Shown: positions 1-10,810 of the stretch, piece after piece
How the letters are laid out: every line of letters begins with the position of its first letter
How positions within the stretch are numbered: the stretch's first letter is position 1
Virus record (IMG/VR): IMGVR_UViG_2917886563_000002
Source: a virus
Taxonomy: Duplodnaviria; Heunggongvirae; Uroviricota; Caudoviricetes
Length of the DNA stretch: 10,810 bases
Reading direction: 5' to 3' (one strand)
The notes under the pieces: generated by a model
What the model saw: the letters and a program-made list of their open reading frames with translations, nothing else
Database searches by the model: none
Told to the model about the DNA's origin: nothing
Translations under genes and position numbers: made by a program

Positions 1-470
<470 letters not shown>

Positions 471-507: not shown

Positions 508-543
508 CTCTATTCAGGTGGCCAAATTTACTATGCCACTACA
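508..543 (-). repeat. Terminal inverted repeat of the IS911-like element (outer end at 543)
   Basis: Lies upstream of the OrfA start; outer end TG (minus) / CA (plus) at 542-543; internal GAGGTGAT/ATCACCTC palindrome at 492-510. Confidence 0.7.
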
Positions 544-599
544 AATAAAACTATATTAGATTATTAATTAGATCATAATAATAATATTCTTTATATCTA

Positions 600-790
600 T
601 ATATATGATCTTTTGCCTTCCGGCGTTAGCTTCACTCCCTGGCAAGCAGCCTTACTCCGCTACCTTTGGGCTACGTTGGCTGGCCCGTTCCGCTCACACC
701 GAAAGCAAAGCGTTACTTTCTTCGTGTAACTATCGTGGCGGTAACGCCCACGAAGAAATACTATTGCGCTGTGCGCAGTAAGAGTAATCA
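600..790. other. GC-richer non-coding segment with nested inverted repeats, unassigned (candidate structured RNA or remnant of a disrupted locus)
   Basis: No ORF of useful length on either strand; local G+C clearly higher than the surrounding AT-rich DNA; contains the 10-bp arm inverted repeat at 713-762. Confidence 0.3.
713..762. repeat. Perfect 10-bp inverted repeat TTTCTTCGTG ... CACGAAGAAA with 30-nt spacer
   Basis: Read directly: tttcttcgtg at 713-722 and cacgaagaaa at 753-762. Confidence 0.7.
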
Positions 791-893
791 CCTAACCAAT
801 CATACTGATTGCTTACGTGTTAACTCTCTCTAACTCTTAATTACCCTCCTACATTTAATAACTCTCGTTATTCTCTGTAGTCGTGTAATTGTT

Positions 894-925
894 TTCGGTG
901 GAAAAGCCAGAGGCGACACCGAAAG
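894..925. repeat. 8-bp inverted repeat TTTCGGTG ... CACCGAAA, related in sequence to the 713-762 hairpin arms
   Basis: tttcggtg at 894-901 and caccgaaa at 918-925; the decamer ACACCGAAAG occurs at 696-705 and again at 916-925. Confidence 0.6.
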
Positions 926-934
926 AGAATTCTG

Positions 935-1000
935 ATCTTATTAATCTTATCTATCTTAGTTAATCTTCTTACTTATCTTACTTACTTTATCTACTTTATT
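935..1000 (+). repeat. Pyrimidine-rich tract with periodic ATCTTA hexamers (iteron-like array)
   Basis: ATCTTA at 935, 944, 953 and 975, with degenerate copies (ATCTTC, CTTACT, ATCTAC) between and after; spacing of 9 bp for the first three. Confidence 0.5.
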
Positions 1001-1507
1001 ATTAATAATAGCTTTATAAGCTCTGTGTAGCTCTCTGACGCAAGAAACAGCATTCAGGAAGGGAATCACCTTAGAAAAGGTGTTCTTTGCGTCATAATGT
1101 GTTTTATGAAGGATTCAGAGGTGTTTCATAACAGGAATGTATAGAGGATACTTTAATTAATTAAAAATAAGGGGTCTAAATGCTTCTCTAACAGCATTAA
1201 GCAGGGTAGGGAATGGAAACGCATTGTCTACATATAATAAGCTCACTACAGAGCTTTACAGAGCGTTTTTATAAAGTGACTCTCTATCTTATATCTACCA
1301 TTACCTTTTCATATACCTAACAAATACAAAATAAGCCCCTTAAATAAGCCTCTGGCGAGCTAAACAGCCATTACATAAGGGAATGTATTGCTTTTATCAA
1401 AATCTCGTTATAACGCGTTTTAGACAATAATGAAGAATGGCACTACACAGAAGAGCACGAGTTGCTCGTAAGTGCATGAAAAAGATCGATTTTTTTCGGA
1501 AGGGGTA

Positions 1508-1536
1508 TTGACAAACGTCTCTTTCTGTGCAATAAT
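1508..1536 (+). promoter_or_regulatory. Sigma70-type promoter candidate (TTGACA, 17-bp spacer, TGcAATAAT extended -10)
   Basis: ttgaca at 1508-1513; aataat at 1531-1536 preceded by tg at 1528-1529; AT-rich upstream; imperfect palindrome GCACGAGttgCTCGTaaGTGC at 1455-1475. Confidence 0.55.
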
Positions 1537-1590
1537 AGGAATTAGAGGGGACAGGAATAGATTCTTATCCTCTAAATAATTAAACCAATG

Positions 1591-1634
1591 CACCGCACTT
1601 TGAAGCCCAAGGCTTGCAAGGTGTTTTTTCTTTT
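1591..1634 (+). terminator. GC-rich stem-loop followed by T6CT4 run in the 5' leader of the first cargo gene (intrinsic terminator or attenuator candidate)
   Basis: CACCGCA...TGCaaGGTG pairing at 1591-1623 with inner AAGCC/GGCTT hairpin, then ttttttctttt at 1624-1634; lies between the 1508-1536 promoter and the SD at 1648-1654. Confidence 0.45.
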
Positions 1635-1661
1635 AACCAAATAGAATAAGGAGGCTAATTA

Positions 1662-1838
1662 ATGAAATATTTTACTCCACAGGATGTAGTAGAAGCCTGG
1701 AAACGTGGTGAGATCAACCGCTTTAAAGTAAGGATGTATAGAAACACCGCTCGCCGTTGTGGTTATCCAGAGCGTGAAAAATGTTTTGACGATGCACTGA
1801 AAATTATTGATGAACTGCGTAAAGCTGAGAAAGAATAA
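1662..1838 (+). CDS. Small basic hypothetical protein (58 aa), absent from the supplied ORF track
   Basis: ATG at 1662 preceded by AAGGAGG (1648-1654); hand translation MKYFTPQDVVEAWKRGEINRFKVRMYRNTARRCGYPEREKCFDDALKIIDELRKAEKE, stop TAA at 1836-1838. Confidence 0.6.
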   Translation: MKYFTPQDVVEAWKRGEINRFKVRMYRNTARRCGYPEREKCFDDALKIIDELRKAEKE

Positions 1839-1860
1839 TAGACAAGAGAAGGAGAAAACT

Positions 1861-2028
1861 ATGAGCGAAACTAAGAAACCAATTCCGCGCACTTACCTAC
1901 ACGTTGACCCTGAAATCTTCAAGGTTTTATTTGCTGAAGCCAAGAAAAGGCAAATTATGGTCAGTGATTTGATGTTAGAAATCATTACTGAAGCAGCAGA
2001 GAACATCAAACAAAAAAAGGGTAAGTGA
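1861..2028 (+). CDS. Small DNA-binding protein, ribbon-helix-helix-like (55 aa)
   Basis: ATG at 1861 with GAAGGAGA SD 5 nt upstream (the track's 1807 start lacks an SD). MSETKKPIPRTYLHVDPEIFKVLFAEAKKRQIMVSDLMLEIITEAAENIKQKKGK shows a polar/hydrophobic alternating strand (RTYLHV) followed by two helices, the RHH pattern. Confidence 0.6.
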   Translation: MSETKKPIPRTYLHVDPEIFKVLFAEAKKRQIMVSDLMLEIITEAAENIKQKKGK

Positions 2029-2079
2029 TCCTCATTCACTTTAGTAGCGCATTAAGCGTGATTTATAAGGAGATTTTTA

Positions 2080-2769
2080 ATGATTAATCAACTAACTTTT
2101 ACAAAACACTATGACACGTTTGATAATGTATCAAAGATTTATTCTGATAAATTCCCTCAAGGAAAAGATTTAGATCTATTACATATTGTGCTTTATTTTC
2201 GATTCCTTAGTTATCAGGAAAACAACCTTAATTGTTATGAAAGTCACGAAACATTAGCTAAGATTTTTAAGTCTTCAGCGTCAACAATTAAACGTAAGAT
2301 AAACGATCTTAAAGAGATGGGATTATTAGAAACATCCCCACATCCTGATCCGTATATTTCATCTTTGATTTACAATGCTCTCCCTCTCACAGATGCACAT
2401 ATTACTCCCCCAGGAGAATCATCACTCTCTGATCTTTCTGAGGCAGAAGAAGCACAGGAACAACCTAAAGGCCATAAACAGCCTTCTTTTGATGCTCTTG
2501 ATGATTGGGATACGCCTTTACCCTGGGAGATGGAAGAAACACCTGTTTCATCAAGTGAAAAGGTAGCTAATGATAATGAGGAGGATGTGTTAAAGAATTT
2601 TGCCTCTCTTATCATCCAGGAGAAACACACAAGAACAGGAGGAGCATCATTTATTGAGTTTGCAAATTCACTAGCTTGTAGATACGGGCTAAAACGACCA
2701 AATGGTATTGAGGCATATTTTGCTAAGAAACATCCCAAAGTATATGAAGACTTTGATATTCCATTTTAA
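2080..2769 (+). CDS. Hypothetical protein with N-terminal winged-HTH-like domain, acidic Pro-rich linker and C-terminal domain (229 aa)
   Basis: SD AAGGAG 7 nt upstream; N-terminus ...LHIVLYFRFLSYQENNLNCYESHETLAKIFKSSASTIKRKINDLKEMGLLE has the look of a wHTH of phage/plasmid replication or regulatory proteins. Confidence 0.8.
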   Translation: MINQLTFTKHYDTFDNVSKIYSDKFPQGKDLDLLHIVLYFRFLSYQENNLNCYESHETLAKIFKSSASTIKRKINDLKEMGLLETSPHPDPYISSLIYNALPLTDAHITPPGESSLSDLSEAEEAQEQPKGHKQPSFDALDDWDTPLPWEMEETPVSSSEKVANDNEEDVLKNFASLIIQEKHTRTGGASFIEFANSLACRYGLKRPNGIEAYFAKKHPKVYEDFDIPF

Positions 2770-2780
2770 TAAGGAGGGTT

Positions 2781-3059
2781 ATGATTCAATATTTAGTAAA
2801 AAATCAAGTAGACAGAATTCAGTGTAATGACACAGGAAAACGCATCTACGAGACACTTGCTTACCTCTATAAAGGAAAGCCAACACCGCTAAAATATAGC
2901 GATGTGTTACATCGAGCAGGTTGCTCTGAAGCTGGTTTAAAATTCTGGCTGAAACAGCTATCAGATTTCGGTGTTATAGAGATTAAAGAATTATCTTTCT
3001 CTACATTCAATCTCAAAAGATTAGATAAAGAAATAGACTTCATCTATTCCACTCTCTAA
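2781..3059 (+). CDS. Small winged-HTH-like protein (92 aa), paralogous in pattern to the N-domain of the 2080-2769 product
   Basis: SD AAGGAGGG immediately upstream; ...RIYETLAYLYKGKPTPLKYSDVLHRAGCSEAGLKFWLKQLSDFGVIEI. Confidence 0.7.
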   Translation: MIQYLVKNQVDRIQCNDTGKRIYETLAYLYKGKPTPLKYSDVLHRAGCSEAGLKFWLKQLSDFGVIEIKELSFSTFNLKRLDKEIDFIYSTL

Positions 3060-3100
3060 AATCTCTCTATGTAATTAAAATATAAAAGGAAAACATTATT

Positions 3101-3247
3101 ATGATAGTAGCTATGTATTGGTTATTGTTCTTTCTCACGTTAGAAGCATATTTCGGGGTGTTTTCCTTTAAAAGAAAAGGAAAAGTAAATGGCAAAAAGA
3201 AAAAAACAACGTTGTTAAGAAGATCGGTGATTCAGCTTCTCTTCTAA
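3101..3247 (+). CDS. Small predicted membrane peptide (48 aa): hydrophobic N-terminus, Lys/Arg-rich C-terminus; possibly the 5' part of a longer frameshifted gene
   Basis: ATG at 3101 with AAGGA about 10 nt upstream; hand translation MIVAMYWLLFFLTLEAYFGVFSFKRKGKVNGKKKKTTLLRRSVIQLLF; not in the ORF track. Confidence 0.4.
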   Translation: MIVAMYWLLFFLTLEAYFGVFSFKRKGKVNGKKKKTTLLRRSVIQLLF

Positions 3248-3360
3248 GTAAACCTAAATCTATTCTAAGACGCAAAGACTTTAAAGAGCTAGTTACGCTC
3301 ACCAAGCAAAATAGCGCCCCTGGCGAATGGAAAACAGAGATCATAGAACATTCTCCCTCT

Positions 3361-3600
3361 GTGCCTTGTGGAGATGAATTTAACGCCTTACAAGAAATCT
3401 TATCTTCAACACCTGGCGTATTCTGGAAACCCAGGAAAAGAAAAGAGTATATCGTTGATAGCTCTGATTTACGCAAATACCAGATTTTAGGATTTGAAGA
3501 TTATAATCACTACGTTGGTTATCTCGCTACCAATGGCCTAAATAATTTAGTTCCAGAATTCCAGATTTTAGATAATGCTGATCACTATGGAGACTTTTAA
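3361..3600 (+). CDS. Hypothetical protein fragment; this frame is open from 3172 with no ATG and is probably the downstream part of a gene starting at 3101
   Basis: Track ORF starts at GTG 3361 with no SD; the same frame is stop-free back to 3172 and overlaps the 3101-3247 ORF across an A-run at 3194-3206. Confidence 0.35.
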   Translation: MPCGDEFNALQEILSSTPGVFWKPRKRKEYIVDSSDLRKYQILGFEDYNHYVGYLATNGLNNLVPEFQILDNADHYGDF

Positions 3601-3601
3601 T

Positions 3602-3940
3602 ATGAACAAAAACACGTATGACACAATTTACTCACTAATTAATTATTATGAGGATGATTACCTCCTGCCTTTAAACCGCGCTGAACTTGAAGCATACAAA
3701 GAAAACACGCCAGCGGCACTAAATGAGGCGTTTAAACACTGGGATTTAGCTGTGAATGCCTTTGAGCACCTCTCTAAGCGTGTAGAGATGCTCTGTAAGC
3801 GCGAAAACGCATATCTGACAGCCGATCAGATATGGGAGCTATCAAACTGGATAGAAGATATTGAATCTGATGTTCGCTATGTAGGGGATGGCCTTGTTGA
3901 ACTCGCACAACGCTTAGGCGCTGCTATCACAGAAGAATAA
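3602..3940 (+). CDS. Acidic hypothetical protein (112 aa from ATG 3602; the track's 3575 start is less likely)
   Basis: GGAG at 3590-3593 sits 8 nt before ATG 3602; product MNKNTYDTIYSLINYYEDDYLLPLNRAELEAYKENTPAALNEAFKHWDLAVNAFEHLSK... is strongly net acidic by hand count (about 22 D/E against 10 K/R). Confidence 0.65.
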   Translation: MNKNTYDTIYSLINYYEDDYLLPLNRAELEAYKENTPAALNEAFKHWDLAVNAFEHLSKRVEMLCKRENAYLTADQIWELSNWIEDIESDVRYVGDGLVELAQRLGAAITEE

Positions 3941-3969
3941 AAAAAGCAACAAAAAAGTTGTAAAATATC

Positions 3970-3998
3970 TTGACATTTCATATATTGTATGTTAATAT
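3970..3998 (+). promoter_or_regulatory. Sigma70-type promoter candidate (TTGACA, 17-bp spacer, TGtTAATAT)
   Basis: ttgaca at 3970-3975; taatat at 3993-3998 preceded by tg at 3990-3991. Confidence 0.5.
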
Positions 3999-4132
3999 AA
4001 TTATATAGGGGTGATTATTTTTCCTTTATTGGTTCGATATTAAAAATTCTTCTTGTCGTTAAAGGGGAGTAAAATCTCCGCTCCCCGCTTCTCCTCCTTA
4101 AGTAATACTGTGTCATACCTCTTTTTTCCTTT

Positions 4133-4162
4133 GTTATGCATACATCTTGGAGTGTGCATAAC
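4133..4162. repeat. Inverted repeat GTTATGCA ... TGCATAAC (operator-like), with a third GTTATGCA copy at 4211-4218
   Basis: gttatgca at 4133-4140, tgcataac at 4155-4162, gttatgca at 4211-4218; adjacent palindrome CAACTTaaAAGTTG at 4217-4230. Confidence 0.6.
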
Positions 4163-4176
4163 ATAGGGTAATTACA

Positions 4177-4207
4177 AAGGCGGCTTTAAATGCTGCCTTT
4201 TATTTTG
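4177..4207 (+). terminator. Stem-loop followed by T-rich run (intrinsic terminator or attenuator candidate)
   Basis: AAGGCGGC (4177-4184) pairs with GCTGCCTT (4192-4199) with one G-T wobble, loop tttaaat, then ttattttg. Confidence 0.45.
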
Positions 4208-4268
4208 CCCGTTATGCAACTTAAAAGTTGTATTTCTTACTTTAAACAAGGTAACAAGGTTTATATAA

Positions 4269-4481
4269 ATGTTGTTCTTAAATGATAAAGAGCAAATCAT
4301 CAAGTATAAAGATGAAATGCTGCGAATTACTCCACAAATTACCGAAATGGTAGCTAAATACGCTGGGTGTTCTGTCGAGGAAGTAGAAAGATGTGTTGAA
4401 AAATATTTTTCTCCTTCTTCTCCGTCTACACCTTCCCTTAATGAATTAATCAAATTAAAAGCTAAGGAGATTACTAAATGA
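4269..4481 (+). CDS. Small acidic hypothetical protein (70 aa)
   Basis: Track ORF; weak SD (AAGG about 10 nt upstream); its stop overlaps the next start (ATGA at 4478-4481), suggesting translational coupling. Confidence 0.55.
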   Translation: MLFLNDKEQIIKYKDEMLRITPQITEMVAKYAGCSVEEVERCVEKYFSPSSPSTPSLNELIKLKAKEITK

Positions 4482-4840
4482 TTATTGATTTAGACACTCT
4501 TTTTCCAGTTCGAAAGACTTTCACAGATATTGTAAGTTACTGTACTGATCCGTTTGCTTCTGTAGAAAGCAAGGTTTTTGCTTCTCTTCCTGCTGATGTT
4601 GAATGCGGAGACTTGATCACCAGCACGGGCGCTAAATATGAATCAGGAGATGATATCTATGTTGTTATGAGTGAATTTGTAACGGCAGGAGAAAACAAGC
4701 CTGTAGATGTGCTACGTAGCAATGCTGGCCTTGTGTGCATTAAAGCTGATGCGCTGAATGCTGTAAGTGAAGCAGCAAAAACAGCATTAATTAAAAAAGG
4801 CTTCCAGCTTGAAGGCTTTAACACGGTTTTCACTTCTTAA
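4478..4840 (+). CDS. Hypothetical protein (120 aa)
   Basis: SD AAGGAGA at 4463-4469; overlapping stop-start with the upstream gene; no family recognised. Confidence 0.7.
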   Translation: MIIDLDTLFPVRKTFTDIVSYCTDPFASVESKVFASLPADVECGDLITSTGAKYESGDDIYVVMSEFVTAGENKPVDVLRSNAGLVCIKADALNAVSEAAKTALIKKGFQLEGFNTVFTS

Positions 4841-4858
4841 TAAAAGGAATAATAATAA

Positions 4859-5887
4859 ATGATTCTAGGTAATGATTACGTTGATTTAGCTCCGCTTTTC
4901 CAGACACACAGCACGCGTAACTTTCTGCTCTCTACCCTCGACTTCACTGATCCGGTGGGCGTTAGTTCTCATAAAGTAGCTGTTTCCCAGCTTGTCGAAA
5001 GCAACGAATCTCTCTTTAACAAAGAGACAAGCCGTTTTAGTTCTGAACACAATGTTACTAAGCGAGAACAAGGTAAAGAATGGCTGATTGAAATCCCGTA
5101 TTTTCTTCGTGAGGATGTGATCCGTCCTTCTGATGTTCAAGGCAAGCGTAAGCCTGGCACTGATTTTCAGGAAACACTTACTGATATCTATGCTGACTAT
5201 GTTGCTAAACACCACGTAGCGTATCAGCGTACAAAAGAGAGCGTGTTGGCGGCTTCTTTGTTCTCTGGCAAAACTTACACGCCTAAAACTGACGATGTGT
5301 TAATTGAGTGGGGCAAGCTGTTTAACGTATCAGCTATGAAAGCCACTGTTAACGCCTCCAGCACTGACACCACGAAGATTTTTAAAGAATTTGATCAGAT
5401 TGCTACTGACATTATCGAAAAAGCACAAAGCCAGGCGGCTGCTGTAGAGCGTATTGTTGTTTTCTGTAAGCCGGAAGCCTTCTCTGCAATTCGATTCTCT
5501 GCTGGTATGGCAAACGCATTCCAGTATGTAAGCCCACTGGAAGAGGGGAACGTTGTGTATCAGCGTCGTGACCTGCTACCAGGAGTGACAGCGTTCACTA
5601 TTCCAGGAACTAACATTGATGTTGTTAAACTGGTAGATCCGCTACACCTGGCACATATGACCGCAGACGCTGTAGCTGTGCCTAAATTCGCTAAAGGCTC
5701 TAACGTATATCAGAACATTTACGGGGCTGCTTCCAGCACTTTTGAACTGATTAATGCCGCTCCTGCTGAGGTGTATAGCTATAGCTATGAATCTTCTCGT
5801 GGTGATGCTGTTAACGTTGTTACAGAGAATAGCCAGATGGTGGTAAACCACGGCGTTGGCTTCTCCGTTCAAATCACTGTTAAATAA
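4859..5887 (+). CDS. Hypothetical protein (342 aa); candidate structural (capsid-like) protein, unverified
   Basis: SD AAGGA upstream; long ORF with protein-like composition and no signal peptide; followed by the strongest terminator in the window; paired with a 120-aa upstream gene. Confidence 0.8.
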   Translation: MILGNDYVDLAPLFQTHSTRNFLLSTLDFTDPVGVSSHKVAVSQLVESNESLFNKETSRFSSEHNVTKREQGKEWLIEIPYFLREDVIRPSDVQGKRKPGTDFQETLTDIYADYVAKHHVAYQRTKESVLAASLFSGKTYTPKTDDVLIEWGKLFNVSAMKATVNASSTDTTKIFKEFDQIATDIIEKAQSQAAAVERIVVFCKPEAFSAIRFSAGMANAFQYVSPLEEGNVVYQRRDLLPGVTAFTIPGTNIDVVKLVDPLHLAHMTADAVAVPKFAKGSNVYQNIYGAASSTFELINAAPAEVYSYSYESSRGDAVNVVTENSQMVVNHGVGFSVQITVK

Positions 5888-5905
5888 TATTTTAACGTGT
5901 AATAG

Positions 5906-5945
5906 AGGCGTGGCGTGTATTCACGCTTCGCCTTTTTTTATTTAT
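5906..5945 (+). terminator. Rho-independent terminator
   Basis: AGGCGTGGCGTG (5906-5917), loop tatt, CACGCTTCGCCT (5922-5933), then ttttttatttatttttt. Confidence 0.75.
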
Positions 5946-5973
5946 TTTTTAAGTTTTGAGAGGTGATTAAAAT

Positions 5974-6177
5974 ATGGAAGTGATTTTGAAATCAAAAAAT
6001 GGTGTACACGTACATTTAGATGCTAATGATTCTAGAGGCTTGTTAAATCTGAAATATCTATGTTCTCTTTTAGATGTTCCCTATGAAGGCGTAAAAGCCC
6101 GTATGTTCAGATTAAACGAGAGTATTGATCAGGCTCTACACCATTTCTTAAGCAAAGAAGGTGGTAAAAATGATTAA
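5974..6177 (+). CDS. Small hypothetical protein (67 aa)
   Basis: SD GAGGTGA 7 nt upstream of ATG 5974; stop 6 nt before the SD of the next gene. Confidence 0.6.
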   Translation: MEVILKSKNGVHVHLDANDSRGLLNLKYLCSLLDVPYEGVKARMFRLNESIDQALHHFLSKEGGKND

Positions 6178-6191
6178 TAAGGGGATTTTAA

Positions 6192-8024
6192 ATGTTAGAA
6201 ATTAACACTTCCAAGATTAAAAATACAGTAACATTTACTGTAGATAAAGACAGCTTGAAAAAAGCGAAAGACTCTATTACAGGCTTAAAGGAATTCGCAG
6301 AGAACATCAAGCCAGCTAAATTAAGATTTGATAGTGTCACTAAAGGCTATAAGAAAGCACAAAGCGAAGTAGACAAGATTGCTCAACAGAAAGCTAAAAC
6401 AGAAAAGCAAAATCAAAGAGCACAAGCTGCCGCAGCAAGAGCACAGGCAAGGCAACAGCAACAAATAGCAGCACGTAAGGAGAAGGCAAACTTAAAACTG
6501 TTAGACGTTGGATCAAGCATTAGTGCATTGCACCGCCTCTCTGTAGCGGAACAATACAAAGCTATTGCACAGGCTAGAGAGATAGCGAAACAATATGAGC
6601 AAGGGGCTATCTCGCTTGCACGTATGAATAGCCAGATGAAACGCTTACAACAGCAACAACGTAAGATTAATGGCAATAGAAAAACTCAATTAGCCCCCGT
6701 TAAGGGAGGAGGATCAGGGAATGCCGCCACTATGGGCGCTCTGTTATTTGGAGGCGCTACGGCTGCTGCTGGCGTGATGGCTGTTAGTAAAACCTCTGAA
6801 TTTATGGCTAACAGCTTTGCGAATGCTGAAACACAAGGCGAGCTAATTCAACGTGCAAGGCTTGGCGGTGTAGACGTTAACCAGATGTATAATATTACAG
6901 AATGGGCCTATAGAAACGGGATCGACTCTATGATGGGTGATCAAGGGGCTAGGAAATACCTGGATCAGATGAAAGATGTTAGGGAACGTGCCGCAAAATC
7001 CTATAGTGAAGCTGAATTAGTGAAAGATAAGAAAACAGGAAAATCTGAATGGAAAGGCGGTGATAACGCTATTAATGAACTTCTAAACATCGGTGTTATT
7101 AACAAAAGCGACCTTAAAAAATTTGCTGATAATCCAGCCGGATTAATTTCTAAGGCTGTTAATGGAATGATGAAAAAAGGGTTTTCAGACTCCCAAATTG
7201 GACAACGTTTAGAAGACCTGGGCGATGATTTGATGCTTACGTCAAAATATTGGCAACGTTCCGTTAAAGATGTACAAGAAAGCATTAACCAGCAAAAAGC
7301 CGCCGGACAATGGCTAACAGAAACACAGCAAGACTCTATTGTTAAATTCAGAGAACTAAACAGACAGCTTTCACAGCTTTCTGATGCAAGACAAGTAGCA
7401 TTCGTAGACGGCTTTATGAAATCTCTTGATCCAAAAGTAACGGAAGAGTTTATGAAAAACCTTTCTAATCTCACTCCGTATTTTACGAAGCTGGGAGAAG
7501 CTACAGGAAGTCTCTTTGAAGCCATTATGAAGATTGTAAACTGGTTTAATCGTAATGATGATAAGACAGATGCTATTCAGAAAAATATGGGTGATGCACC
7601 GCCACTATCTAACGATGGAATGAAACAGAATCTTTCTAACCTCGTTCCTGACCAATATAAAGGCGCTGGCACTGCAACAACTACACCTGATAATAGTCGT
7701 TCTCTCTTTAACACGATTAAGGGATTGCTTTTTGATGATAATTCTTCTGTGTCAGATGTAAAAATGTCAGTCAATGAAGCACCGATAACCAATCTCAAAC
7801 AGGGTGCTTTAAATAATCTTGCAATGACAACTCCGGCTTATAATTTATCTCCTGTGTTTAATCTGAATCCAACGTTTGAAGTGGTAACAGAGGTTCCGCT
7901 TACTATTAATTCTGACACGTCCAGATTAAGTGATTATGTGGATTTTACAGCGAGAGCAAGTCGGGATATCTTCTTGAAATCATTAACATTAACCAGCTTA
8001 TCAGGACAATCTAACGGCGGGTAA
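6192..8024 (+). CDS. Large hypothetical protein (610 aa): Gln/Ala-rich coiled-coil-like N-region, Gly/Ala hydrophobic segment, Asn/Ser/Thr-rich C-terminus; tape-measure-like or scaffold-like, unverified
   Basis: SD AAGGGGA upstream; segments ...KTEKQNQRAQAAAARAQARQQQQIAARKEKANLK... and ...GGGSGNAATMGALLFGGATAAAGVMAVS...; no signal peptide. Confidence 0.8.
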   Translation: MLEINTSKIKNTVTFTVDKDSLKKAKDSITGLKEFAENIKPAKLRFDSVTKGYKKAQSEVDKIAQQKAKTEKQNQRAQAAAARAQARQQQQIAARKEKANLKLLDVGSSISALHRLSVAEQYKAIAQAREIAKQYEQGAISLARMNSQMKRLQQQQRKINGNRKTQLAPVKGGGSGNAATMGALLFGGATAAAGVMAVSKTSEFMANSFANAETQGELIQRARLGGVDVNQMYNITEWAYRNGIDSMMGDQGARKYLDQMKDVRERAAKSYSEAELVKDKKTGKSEWKGGDNAINELLNIGVINKSDLKKFADNPAGLISKAVNGMMKKGFSDSQIGQRLEDLGDDLMLTSKYWQRSVKDVQESINQQKAAGQWLTETQQDSIVKFRELNRQLSQLSDARQVAFVDGFMKSLDPKVTEEFMKNLSNLTPYFTKLGEATGSLFEAIMKIVNWFNRNDDKTDAIQKNMGDAPPLSNDGMKQNLSNLVPDQYKGAGTATTTPDNSRSLFNTIKGLLFDDNSSVSDVKMSVNEAPITNLKQGALNNLAMTTPAYNLSPVFNLNPTFEVVTEVPLTINSDTSRLSDYVDFTARASRDIFLKSLTLTSLSGQSNGG

Positions 8025-8057
8025 TTCCCGCCATAACATTACAAGGAAATTATTATT

Positions 8058-8768
8058 ATGGCGACGGCGGGAATTTTAACCATACGTGCAGCAAATACTC
8101 CAGAACAACACGTTCAGGCTGTTTACAAAGCAGAACAAGATATAAACTCTACAAAAAACGAAAATAGCAAAGCTAATAAAACAAAAGGAGAAAATGGATT
8201 TGCTATTGTCACCAGTGGGCTGGCATCTTCTGTAAGTGACGTTTATGAAAATTATATGGCGTTATCCTTTGACAGTGTTGACGATGTGAACGTGAGACGT
8301 TCGGCAGATGTCACAAGCTATCCTGTAGAAAATGGAGCTAATGTATCGGATCACGTTCAAGTTAAGAATAATAAGTTTGCTCTTAAAGGGCGTATCTCTG
8401 AAACACCGATTAAAAGCGATCCTGGCTTGTTAAAGAGTGCAGGGGTGAACGGGAACAGAAGATCATTAGCTATCGACTACCTGAATCAGATTATGGACAG
8501 TAGACAGCCTTTTCTTCTTGTTACAGAAAATAAAACTTTTGAGAACGTTGTTTTAACAGGCATCGAATACACAGAAGAGGCAAGCGAATCTCTGGTATTT
8601 GATTTGGAATTTGAGCAAATCAGATTAGTTTCTTATGGCACTGTAAACACTGTAGCTATCAAAACACAGCCATCTAAGAACATCGGGGCTAATATGAAAA
8701 AACGTGTTAACACTGAAAAAACAAGTGAAGGTGAAGACACTATTACTCCTGCCTTTAAGCAGGAATAG
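8058..8768 (+). CDS. Hypothetical protein (236 aa); possible virion or tail-associated protein, unverified
   Basis: SD AAGGA 10 nt upstream; immediately follows the 610-aa gene; a stem-loop follows the stop. Confidence 0.75.
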   Translation: MATAGILTIRAANTPEQHVQAVYKAEQDINSTKNENSKANKTKGENGFAIVTSGLASSVSDVYENYMALSFDSVDDVNVRRSADVTSYPVENGANVSDHVQVKNNKFALKGRISETPIKSDPGLLKSAGVNGNRRSLAIDYLNQIMDSRQPFLLVTENKTFENVVLTGIEYTEEASESLVFDLEFEQIRLVSYGTVNTVAIKTQPSKNIGANMKKRVNTEKTSEGEDTITPAFKQE

Positions 8769-8809
8769 CCGTAAACGCCTCTAAAACGCTCTGTAACGAT
8801 GTAATTATA

Positions 8810-8842
8810 AAAGAGGCTACCAATCTATGTTGAAGCCTCTTT
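8810..8842. terminator. Stem-loop between convergent genes (bidirectional terminator candidate)
   Basis: AAAGAGGCT (8810-8818) and AGCCTCTTT (8834-8842), 15-nt loop; T/A-rich flanks on both strands; lies between the 8058-8768 gene and the minus-strand recombinase. Confidence 0.4.
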
Positions 8843-8849
8843 ATTGCGT

Positions 8850-9848
8850 CTATGGCGTTGTTTTACGCCTTAAATTTGATTTTTTATTGATTGATAAGCC
8901 TTTCTCTATTTCAGGGTAGCGTAGAAGCTCAATATATTTTTTAAGCTCTACTGGAGAAGCTGCATTCTTGCTATATGTGCGGAATGTCTCTGTATTGCCG
9001 CGTGTATGGCCCAGGAGAAGGGCGATCCTGTCTTCTGGAATTTGATTTCGATCAAGAAGCTGTGCTACTCCGTGTCTCAGAGAATGAAACACCTTCCTTT
9101 CTGTTCCCTTTTCCCCTAAAGCCTTTCGTTTAGCTCTTGTAAATCTCTGCGTGTGCCACGTGGAACGTTTACCATCAGCACGCTCTGTAATGCTGGCGTG
9201 ATAGAACAAAAAGCCATTGTGAGGCTTTTCACGAAGAGATAACACCAACGGAGTGATAAGGCTATGTACAGGCACAAGACGTGCCGCAGCTTTCGTTTTT
9301 CCCTGTGTGATTTCAAAACACAGCACACCTTCGATCTCTTTCACATCGTCTATTGTGAGACTTGCTATCTCATTGATCCGCATACCTGTATATAAACCGA
9401 TAAGACACAAAGCCGTCATTTCTTTGTTTTCTGCTGAATTACCGGAAAATACTTGCAACACCTGCAATAGCTCTTTGTTAGAAAATGCCTCATAGCTCTC
9501 TCTACTTTGTGCCACATCAAGCCTATGCCCTCGCCAGGGGGAGAGCGCCCTTTCTGGCGCATCGTGGTAACGTGATGAAGCTAACTCCCATAGCTGGGCC
9601 ATTGGGCTGATATAATTTGCAATTGATTGTTGTGAAAGGGTTTTTTGCATGCGTTCTATCCAGCCTGTAACAGTGGTGCGGCTCACATCTTGCAATGCAA
9701 TATCAGGCTTTTTACGGTAGGAGAGAAACATCTCTACCGCTTTTCTTGCCTTAGCTAAAGTGGCTGGCTTCTTCTTCGTGCTGTTAATTGTCAGGTAGAT
9801 TTCAAGAATTTTAAGCAATGACGGACACGAAGACGCTGTATCTTGCAT
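8850..9848 (-). CDS. Tyrosine site-specific recombinase (integrase), 332 aa
   Basis: Catalytic-domain signature in order: Arg in ...LYTGMRINEIASL..., H-x-x-R in ...FHSLRHGVAQLL..., ...LLGHTRG..., and Tyr in ...TFRTYSK...; N-terminal region ...LEIYLTINSTKKKPATLAKARKAVEMFLSY... resembles a core-binding domain. Confidence 0.9.
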   Translation of the reverse strand: MQDTASSCPSLLKILEIYLTINSTKKKPATLAKARKAVEMFLSYRKKPDIALQDVSRTTVTGWIERMQKTLSQQSIANYISPMAQLWELASSRYHDAPERALSPWRGHRLDVAQSRESYEAFSNKELLQVLQVFSGNSAENKEMTALCLIGLYTGMRINEIASLTIDDVKEIEGVLCFEITQGKTKAAARLVPVHSLITPLVLSLREKPHNGFLFYHASITERADGKRSTWHTQRFTRAKRKALGEKGTERKVFHSLRHGVAQLLDRNQIPEDRIALLLGHTRGNTETFRTYSKNAASPVELKKYIELLRYPEIEKGLSINKKSNLRRKTTP

Positions 9849-9925
9849 TCTGGTAGCTGTTTTGGCGTATTTAGCCTTACTTCGTAACAGTTCCAGCGTG
9901 TTCTCTATTGTGCTGTTTACAGGAG

Positions 9926-10810
9926 TGATCTTGACCCGCTATCTCCGGACCGCTTTTGTATCTTAAGTTAACGATGCCCGCTGCCGCCGGTATTCCCTCG
10001 GAGAGTAATATCCCAGCGCGCTGTGCGGGTGGTTTTCATTGTAATGCGTGAACGCTGCTGCAAGGTTTTGCAGGGCTGTTCTCACATCCGGTTTTGGCAT
10101 GAACGCGATATAGTCTTCTTTCATCGTCTTCACGAACCGTTCGGCCATGCCATTACTCTGCGGACTGCTCACCGCTGTTGTACAGGGTTCAAGATTCAGC
10201 TCTCTGGCGAACCTCCGCGTTTCATGCGCAGTATACGCTGAACCGTTATCCGTCAACCACTGCACTGGTGTGTCCGGCAACCTGTCGCCGAAGCGCTTTT
10301 CCACCGACCTCAGCATCACATCCTGTACGGTCGAACTGTCGTAGCCTCCCGTGCTCGCTGCCCAGTCTATGGCCTCTCTGTCGCAGCAGTCCAGCGCGAA
10401 CGTCACCCGCAGTTTTTCACCGTTGTCGCAGCCGAACTCGAAGCCGTCTGAACACCAGCGCATATTGCTTTCTGCCACCGCGATTTTTCCCTTGTGTTCA
10501 CGCTTCGGTCGCTCTGGTTTGTCATGCAACAACAACAGGTTATGCTCGCTCATTATCCTGTAAAGTCGTTTGGCGTTCACCGGTGGCTCTCCCTCAGTGC
10601 GACGTTGCTTGCGCAGGATGCCCCACACGCGTCGATAACCATAACTCGGCATATCGCTGATGATATCGAGGATATCCGTCAGTATTTCAGCGTCTGCTTC
10701 GTCATTACGCCGGTTACAGCGCCTGTCCTGCCAGTCGGCAGAACGGTTAACTCGCAGTGACAGCTGCGCACGCGACACGCCCATGGTGCGGCTGACCAGG
10801 GCTATTCCCC
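9926..10810 (-). mobile_element. IS3-family insertion sequence, IS2-like, partial (OrfA side runs off the right window edge)
   Basis: Minus-strand end reads ...GGCGGCAGCGGGCATCGTTAACTTAAGATACAAAAGCGGTCCGGAGATAGCGGGTCAAGATCA, the same pattern as the IS2 right end as recalled; G+C rises at 9926; encodes an IS2 OrfB-like transposase. Confidence 0.88.
9963..10784 (-). CDS. IS3-family (IS2 group) transposase OrfB, DDE catalytic domain
   Basis: ...[13 protein letters not shown]...RWCSDGFEF...[13 protein letters not shown]...[11 protein letters not shown]...[11 protein letters not shown]...[12 protein letters not shown]; D, D and E motif residues present; frame continues upstream past 10784 toward the window edge. 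Confidence 0.92.

Follow-up and report, generated by a model that had tools for sequence, protein, structure and literature searches.

A three-gene capsid module in an integrative island of Escherichia coli linked by sequence to virulent phi92-type myophages

The capsid module and its expression signals

The DNA studied here, a stretch of 10,810 nucleotides (nt) from the IMG/VR virus record IMGVR_UViG_2917886563_000002 (Caudoviricetes) that is termed the window in the following, contains at positions 4269 to 5945 a compact block of three genes for proteins of 70, 120 and 342 amino acids (aa). The block resides in a truncated copy of an integrative island from Escherichia coli, relatives of which are found in further Enterobacteriaceae, and its structural genes are related to those of virulent myophages such as phi92. 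The block and its upstream region comprise the following features:

3970-3998, plus strand: near-consensus sigma-70 promoter with extended -10 region (TTGACA-17-TAATAT), at which a non-coding leader starts
4176-4200, plus strand: intrinsic terminator that closes the leader, 70 nt 5' of the capsid genes (-13.7 kcal/mol)
4269-4481, plus strand: gene for the 70-aa protein (open reading frame (ORF) call)
4478-4840, plus strand: gene for the 120-aa protein (ORF call)
4859-5887, plus strand: gene for the 342-aa protein (ORF call)
5904-5942, plus strand: strong intrinsic terminator at the end of the capsid operon, predicted by folding (stem 5904-5935 plus U7)

In complete agreement with the initial annotation, which was made from the DNA letters alone, the three genes are tightly packed, the first two sharing an ATGA stop-start overlap at 4478-4481, and the block is closed by the strongest terminator within the window (5904-5942; interrupted stem of 13 base pairs, -20.6 kcal/mol, z-score of -6.1, none of 200 shuffled sequences as stable). 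Phage phi92 likewise has a terminator directly 3' of its capsid gene. The earlier statement that every gene of the block is preceded by a Shine-Dalgarno sequence holds true for the 120-aa gene (AAGGAG, 4464-4469, 8 nt 5' of the ATG) and for the 342-aa gene (AAGGA, 4844-4848, 10 nt 5' of the ATG), while the ATG of the 70-aa gene is preceded by a weak AAGG only (4256-4259). The second terminator at 4176-4200, equivalents of which are present in all family members, had been overlooked; with it, the capsid block is bracketed by terminators.

The 342-aa protein matches Pfam family PF03864 (Phage_cap_E) with 50.7 bits (cut-off 22.9, E = 1.7e-13) over the full length of the profile, residues 23-341 corresponding to profile positions 18-329 of 329, as well as PHROG 29, "major head protein". 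All of its homologues carry PF03864. Among PDB sequences, it matches solved capsid proteins including 9zbi_A and phi92 gp124, and it is 22% identical to phi92 gp124 from end to end (E = 1e-9). An AlphaFold2 model with a predicted local distance difference test score (pLDDT) of 62 and a predicted template modelling score (pTM) of 0.64, in which the N-arm and the E-loop are of low confidence, was compared with the PDB by Foldseek. The capsid of PhiTE was the best match (E = 4.9e-12), and those of Sf14, Bas63, ICP1, YSD1, Chi and lambda were also retrieved. The 50 matches listed are nearly all HK97-fold phage capsid entries, accompanied by one encapsulin and one engineered cage; non-capsid entries from T5 and DT57C are absent from these 50. 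The RefSeq/NCBI pipeline names the protein "major capsid protein", and in a search of 5.8 billion proteins the source-named capsid homologues all stem from Enterobacterales. By sequence family and modelled fold, we identify the 342-aa protein as a major capsid protein with HK97 fold, of the lambda gpE family.

The 120-aa protein itself matches no Pfam family, that of gpD included, and no PHROG at E <= 0.1, NCBIfam returned nothing for the structural genes, and comparison with phi92 gp123 by BLASTP yielded E = 1.1. Its family is tiny, with 22 relatives in a full HMMER scan of 1.84 billion representative proteins. Distant members of this family match PHROG 2680, head decoration (P0178, E = 1.7e-5; P0179, E = 6.9e-4), the same PHROG that is matched by phi92 gp123 (E = 6.7e-39), and hhalign aligned the 120-aa family with the gp123-type family end to end over 107 columns (probability 83%, E = 9.2e-6). 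Both families have a common VFTS C-terminus. In the window, in phi92 and in five further phages the decoration gene is located directly 5' of the major capsid gene, and phi92 gp123 and its PhiTE homologue are visible in solved capsids; solved structures of decoration proteins are 21uy_E and 9cul_e. The family profile gave a weak match to the Bas63 decoration protein (E = 0.85). Taken together, the 120-aa protein appears to be remotely homologous to the head-decoration protein of the phi92 gp123 type (PHROG 2680), and it resembles the decoration proteins of phi92/rV5-type myophages rather than lambda gpD.

With regard to the initial annotation, its main proposal, a capsid-type module, is borne out for the 342-aa protein by PF03864, PHROG 29, the sequence matches to solved capsids and the HK97-fold model, and for the 120-aa protein by remote homology to decoration proteins. 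Profile and fold searches, which it had named as the way to check the 342-aa protein, led to capsid families in Pfam and PHROGs and to HK97-fold structures. The reading of the 120-aa protein as a decoration protein is favored by its position and by the hhalign match to the gp123 family, while the fold search contributed only noise: the AlphaFold2 model is poor (pLDDT 49.6) and Foldseek found no match below E = 0.85. The statement that the 342-aa protein belongs to no recognizable family is not tenable in view of the PF03864 score and the NCBI name already in place, and the notion of proteins with an undescribed function is not supported, given the capsid and decoration assignments. The likeness to lambda D and E, which had been put forward as an analogy of architecture, is true homology in the case of E, because the 342-aa protein falls into the Pfam family named after that protein, while the 120-aa protein, for which Pfam gave no match at E <= 0.1, is not gpD-like. 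Finally, the block had been likened to lambda-like phages, while its actual context is a 12-kb island without most virion genes.

The 70-aa protein is an orphan to which no family could be assigned. It occupies the same position 5' of the decoration gene in six lineages, with identities of 28-50%. The C-terminal 13-mers of the 70-aa protein in two island types, SLNELIKLKAKEI in type A and SHQDLINAKAQQI in type B, find their best match in the last helix of the phage scaffold, type A being closest to the C-terminus of the phi92 scaffold and type B to that of ESCO25. This match was the best among 8,598 positions (z ~5-5.6) in a test that was post hoc and concerned short, lysine- and alanine-rich segments. 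Homology of the whole protein to the phi92-type scaffold (PHROG 2970) was considered and rejected (hhalign probability 0.2%; BLASTP E = 0.34). We propose that the 70-aa protein may be a small scaffold-like or capsid-size factor.

The three-gene unit with the same 4-nt overlap is also present in Buttiauxella, Kluyvera, Scandinavium, Citrobacter and a second E. coli lineage. For the 120-aa and 342-aa genes, the ratio of non-synonymous to synonymous substitution rates (dN/dS) amounts to 0.10-0.17 and 0.07-0.15, respectively. Close pairs of the 70-aa gene yield a ratio of ~0.4-0.5, and in distant pairs of this gene the proportion of non-synonymous differences (pN) is 0.34 vs. ~0.8 for synonymous ones (pS). 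Because the unit recurs across genera and is under purifying selection, we take the three genes to be real and not chance ORFs.

The arrangement of promoter, leader and terminator precedes the capsid block in every lineage, and an equivalent of the promoter is conserved in other genera. The non-coding leader (window 3970-4268) is ~180 nt long in E. coli and ~550 nt in other genera (long leaders at L012 8742-9404, L013 8755-9394 and L016 8752-9390, L numbers denoting island loci). Across four genera the ~550-nt leader is 72% identical, and RNAalifold predicted 145 base pairs, 34 of them with compensatory changes. A scan with Rfam gave tRNA only and no match for the leader, and a late-promoter motif shared by the region upstream of the block and the intergenic regions of phi92 was looked for and not seen. 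Since a strong promoter, a leader and a terminator lie ahead of the capsid operon, control by antitermination or by a leader RNA is suggested. The leader could be the target of antitermination or act as a regulatory RNA, and expression of the block probably depends on passage of the leader terminator.

The island surrounding the capsid module

The intact island has a size of 12.2 kb and is located at thrW next to proA in strain APEC O1 (locus L001) and many other strains, where a 20-25 bp repeat of the 3' end of tRNA-Thr forms its borders. A repeat-rich non-coding region of 3.6 kb is followed by small ORFs and a winged helix-turn-helix (wHTH) gene, the capsid block, a 67-aa gene, the genes for a tape measure protein and a Dit-like tube initiator and, finally, an integrase gene. 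The intact copies are, judged by their integrase and att repeats, a discrete integrative element. Identity with Sp1 and Sp2, the elements at thrW of O157 Sakai, was considered and rejected; these are different elements. In the window, the island and the insertion sequences (IS) flanking it are represented by the following features:

1-537: IS3-family fragment with the transposase OrfA (HTH_Tnp_1) at 159-470, minus strand
538-9923: IS-truncated island remnant, corresponding to L001 5434-14955 of APEC O1 (blastn, 95% identity)
1849-2090, plus strand: 55-aa ORF (1861-2025) and 5' end of the wHTH gene, corresponding to L001 6878-7119
2080-2769, plus strand: 229-aa winged-helix (HTH_36) protein, candidate replication initiator or regulator
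5974-6177, plus strand: 67-aa protein in the position of phi92 gp133, 5' of the tape measure gene (synteny only)
6192-8024, plus strand: 610-aa tail tape measure protein (PHROG 16051, E = 7e-53)
8058-8768, plus strand: 236-aa Dit-like tail tube initiator, 62% identical to phi92 gp135
8850-9938, minus strand: tyrosine integrase lacking its first 63 residues, cut by IS insertion
9924-10810: IS3-family fragment with an rve transposase at 9963-10784, minus strand; truncates the integrase

The left non-coding region of the island contains four 22-bp iterons, TAGGTCAYWGTGAGCTAGGGGG, flanked by AT-rich repeats. Besides these iterons, further repeat families occur in L001 4640-5430, i.e., TTACACAGGGAATAGA-like elements (at least three copies), CTGWTACCCCTATC (three copies) and CCTAGGAARTGRTTTCC (three copies), and the array as a whole likely constitutes a replication origin combined with a protein-binding array. 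The 229-aa protein scores 24.3 bits with Pfam HTH_36, just below the cut-off of 25, matches replication-initiator families of PHROGs and is homologous to gp094 of phage muut (27% identity, E = 6e-7). The 67-aa protein was also considered as a homologue of phi92 gp133, with which it shares the position and no sequence similarity.

Among the 13 island proteins, searches of Pfam, PHROGs and NCBIfam detected no portal, terminase, protease, sheath, tube, baseplate or lysis gene. As far as can be judged from this gene content, the island is non-autonomous, i.e., it lacks genes essential for a virion of its own. PADLOC returned only generic wHTH matches for the island and no defence-system model.

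Matches to the island were found in 727 of 5,426 complete E. coli genomes (~13%), APEC O1-type extraintestinal pathogens included. Kluyvera and Buttiauxella contain related islands of 13.8 kb, the Buttiauxella copy being inserted at tRNA-Leu, and further relatives exist in Citrobacter, Scandinavium and the second E. coli lineage, the capsid protein of which is 72% identical. The tube initiator is present in both E. coli lineages and in Buttiauxella and absent from the islands of Kluyvera, Citrobacter and Scandinavium, in which the integrase follows directly after the tape measure gene (L013 13215-13244, L016 13215-13704, and L014). The conserved core therefore consists of the 70-aa protein, the decoration protein, the capsid protein, the 67-aa protein and the tape measure protein.

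In the window copy, the IS at 1-537 has taken the place of 2.4 kb on the left side of the island; intact copies have there the origin iterons and a copy of a phage terminal-repeat site that is described below. The IS-flanked configuration of the window is present in none of the 5,426 complete E. coli genomes, the best coverage being 87%. In the homologue of a 134-aa gene (window 3190-3600), a shift in an A-run near the 5' end has put the ATG out of frame; this is the sole sign of gene decay in the otherwise intact, IS-truncated copy. Because IS insertions have removed the origin region, the putative packaging-site mimic and the N-terminus of the integrase, the window copy is probably immobile, with structural genes that are still intact. 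Relative to APEC O1, a deletion of ~90 bp was noted in non-coding DNA to the right of the iterons (window 874-890, corresponding to L001 5785-5875).

Ties to virulent phi92-type phages and interpretation of the island

The structural genes of the island form a collinear subset of the morphogenesis module of phi92, in which scaffold, decoration and capsid genes are followed, further downstream, by gp133, the tape measure gene and gp135. Conservation along the tail proteins is mosaic. The first 23 residues of the tape measure protein (window 6192-6260) are identical to those of phi92 and the remainder is 26% identical, and the 24 aligned N-terminal residues of the tube initiator (window 8088-8140) equal those of phi92 gp135 except for one D/E change. 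Such a pattern suggests that contact surfaces with helper tail proteins have been preserved.

A second tie resides in the left part of the intact island. Positions 4191-4230 of L001 are identical to nt 318-357 of phi92 (40 of 40 nt), a segment that extends across the end of the 343-bp direct terminal repeat annotated in phi92, and the core of this site is conserved in phages of the subfamily from three host genera. The island segment containing the copy gave one match per genome in 428 complete E. coli genomes. The island of the second E. coli lineage (L037, ~3929-4011) carries instead the Phapecoctavirus version of the site. Phage records of that genus contain this version twice, at 260-360 nt from the genome ends. 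The same helper genus is indicated by three additional markers, namely the identity of the tube initiator, the N-terminus of the tape measure protein and the C-terminus of the 70-aa protein.

Thirdly, stretches of almost identical DNA connect islands and phages. The intact-island equivalent of window 1849-2090 is 99% identical to DNA of the Justusliebigvirus phages muut and inny, and in inny the shared segment extends into a chimeric wHTH gene. Overall, type A islands contain stretches of 242-570 bp that are 97-99% identical to phages of the matching genus (muut, inny), and the type B island (L037, ~6471-6825) contains 355 bp that are 97-99% identical to the Phapecoctavirus Mt1B1_P17. Identities of this order point to recent recombination in the same cell.

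Based on these ties, we consider it probable that the block is the head-morphogenesis operon of an island that behaves as a satellite of virulent phi92/phAPEC8-type myophages (Stephanstirmvirinae). For the more specific proposal of a new satellite family in Enterobacteriaceae that supplies its own capsid, decoration, tape measure and tube initiator proteins, takes portal, terminase and the other tail parts from the helper, and is packaged via a terminal-repeat mimic that covaries with the helper genus, we see the balance as even. Under the satellite reading in general, infection by a helper phage would lead to excision and replication of the island, after which the capsid operon would be turned on. 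Capsid and decoration proteins of the island would form, on the helper portal, a shell sized for 12-14 kb, with the 70-aa protein possibly serving as a mini-scaffold or scaffold mimic similar to CpmB. The helper terminase would then package island DNA via the terminal-repeat mimic, and tails would be built from helper parts around the tape measure protein and tube initiator of the island.

Several observations weigh against a satellite. No sequence dataset shows induction, excision, replication or packaging of the island. Searches of metagenome and viral contigs for the predicted attP junction were negative. The island site is present on 25 metagenome contigs, 14 of which were retrieved in full, and none of these 14 is circular; two end at att repeats, which is ordinary assembly behavior. 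Matches in IMG/VR, isolate-derived records included, are proviral regions of genomes on contigs of 19.6-76 kb, and since these are longer than the island they do not attest to free island DNA. Between the capsid protein of the island and those of the presumed helpers, identity is only 22-25%, so that co-assembly with a helper portal is an assumption. Instead of being a packaging signal, the copy of the terminal-repeat boundary could serve in regulation or as an origin. The window copy lacks the terminal-repeat site, the iterons and a complete integrase, as well as attL and attR. Within the block, the assignment of the 120-aa protein is a profile-profile similarity of 83% probability with a model too poor to indicate a fold, and the idea of the 70-aa protein as a scaffold mimic finds no statistical support in the comparison with the phage scaffold (hhalign probability 0.2%).

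It appears unlikely, albeit worth considering, that the element is an anti-phage interference island that is not packaged at all and whose structural homologues are dominant-negative decoys that co-assemble with and poison phi92-type virions, to the protection of the bacterial population. Decoys of this kind would explain the phage-identical interface segments at the first 23 residues of the tape measure protein and the N-terminus of the tube initiator, and the resemblance of the 70-aa C-terminus to that of the scaffold as well as the persistence of intact structural genes in the immobile, IS-truncated window copy would also fit. Furthermore, satellites often interfere with their helpers (PMC12409344). 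However, decoys leave unexplained the constant size of 12-14 kb, the apparatus of att sites, integrase and iteron-based replication, and the fact that the terminal-repeat boundary is copied exactly and in the version of the respective helper genus, and PADLOC matched no defence model. Interference and transfer as a satellite are not mutually exclusive.

Descent from an ordinary temperate phage, of whose prophage head module the block would be a leftover after deletions, we regard as quite improbable. The window copy is indeed flanked and truncated by IS and its 134-aa homologue has lost its start, and thrW is a prophage hotspot at which O157 Sakai harbors Sp1 and Sp2. A decaying remnant is, however, difficult to reconcile with the same compact, att-bounded gene set in the same order at 12.2-13.8 kb in at least five genera and with strong purifying selection on its genes (dN/dS 0.07-0.17 for the 120- and 342-aa genes). 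Moreover, the relatives of the structural genes belong to virulent myophages of 145-150 kb and not to temperate phages, no larger prophage version was seen among the loci examined, and the capsid-protein homologues with a named source in the large protein search are confined to Enterobacterales. A self-sufficient minimal virus or helper-free producer of particles similar to gene transfer agents, finally, is highly improbable, since a tailed particle is impossible from a gene set that provides capsid, decoration and tape measure proteins, in some lineages the tube initiator, and a replication module, but in which portal, terminase, sheath, tube and baseplate genes, as well as protease and lysis genes, were not detected.

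Significance and comparison with known systems

The three-gene block itself is an ordinary class of genes, a capsid module, and thereby of a known kind; what is apparently undescribed is the island as a satellite. Full-text searches, with subscription-only papers outside their coverage, found no description of the island. Phages of the phi92/phAPEC8 type have been isolated for phage therapy. If they are indeed helpers, an island with matches in ~13% of complete E. coli genomes could affect phage efficacy and gene transfer in treatment, and the terminal-repeat mimic would offer a tangible candidate for their packaging site, which is so far undefined.

The head module of phi92 (scaffold gp122, decoration protein gp123, capsid protein gp124) and its relatives among the Stephanstirmvirinae/Vequintavirinae myophages shows the same order of decoration gene, capsid gene and terminator as the island. 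The capsid proteins fall into one Pfam family and one PHROG family and have a common fold at an identity of only 22%, the decoration proteins appear to be remote homologues with the VFTS end, and tape measure and tube initiator genes follow collinearly downstream. The 371-aa scaffold of phi92 and the 70-aa protein have at most a C-terminal motif in common, and in the island the module is part of a 12-kb integrative element without portal or terminase. With lambda gpD and gpE the block shares gene order and protein sizes, its capsid protein belongs to the Pfam family of gpE and lambda capsids are among its fold matches, while the 120-aa protein has no match to the gpD family at E <= 0.1 and the surrounding element is unrelated to lambdoid phages.

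Similar to P4, the island is chromosomally integrated and has a size of ~12 kb. P4 also encodes a decoration-type protein, Psu. It has no capsid or tail structural genes, and its helper P2 is temperate. P4 and the cos-type Staphylococcus aureus pathogenicity islands (SaPIs) possess a copy of the packaging site of the helper and are packaged by the helper terminase (10.1101/2022.09.08.507074). The island also carries a copy of a helper site, in its case only a candidate packaging site and, unlike in P4, the boundary of the direct terminal repeat of a virulent phage. In SaPI1, a motif shared with the helper scaffold enables the small helical scaffold mimic CpmB to compete with it (PMC12409344). 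As in SaPI1, a protein of ~70 aa is encoded in the capsid operon of the presumed satellite, and its C-terminus best matches the C-terminal helix of a scaffold. On the other hand, there is no detectable homology between CpmB and the 70-aa protein, the resemblance to the scaffold is a 13-residue motif without statistical support, and the island, unlike SaPI1, also has its own capsid protein.

The PLE of Vibrio cholerae is a small integrative island tied to a virulent myophage, its helper ICP1, as would be the case here. PLE uses the coat protein of its helper together with the external scaffold TcaP (PMC10002752), and 8g1r, the capsid of ICP1 as present in PLE particles, ranks among the best fold matches of the 342-aa model and is of the same fold class. 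Unlike PLE, the island supplies its own coat and decoration proteins. The cf-PICIs (phage-inducible chromosomal islands that form capsids), e.g., EcCIEDL933, are E. coli islands with an HK97-fold capsid protein of their own that rely on a helper to provide the remaining virion parts; they encode protease, portal, head-tail connectors, HNH, TerS and TerL and no tail genes (10.1101/2022.09.08.507074). The element described here resembles them as a chromosomal E. coli island with its own predicted HK97-fold capsid protein instead of a remodelled helper capsid. It is not a cf-PICI, as portal, protease, connectors, HNH, TerS and TerL are absent and tape measure and tube initiator genes are present, and unlike cf-PICIs it appears to use the helper terminase via the terminal-repeat mimic.

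To our knowledge, the known satellites of E. coli either remodel the capsid of the helper, as P4 and the classical PICIs do, or bring along a complete head and packaging set, as is the case for cf-PICIs, and all of them exploit temperate phages. Should the island be a satellite as proposed here, it would represent a third design in E. coli, consisting of shell, decoration and two tail-core proteins, that is tied by sequence to virulent myophages of 150 kb, and, within the literature searched, apparently the first described parasite of this kind of virulent coliphages.

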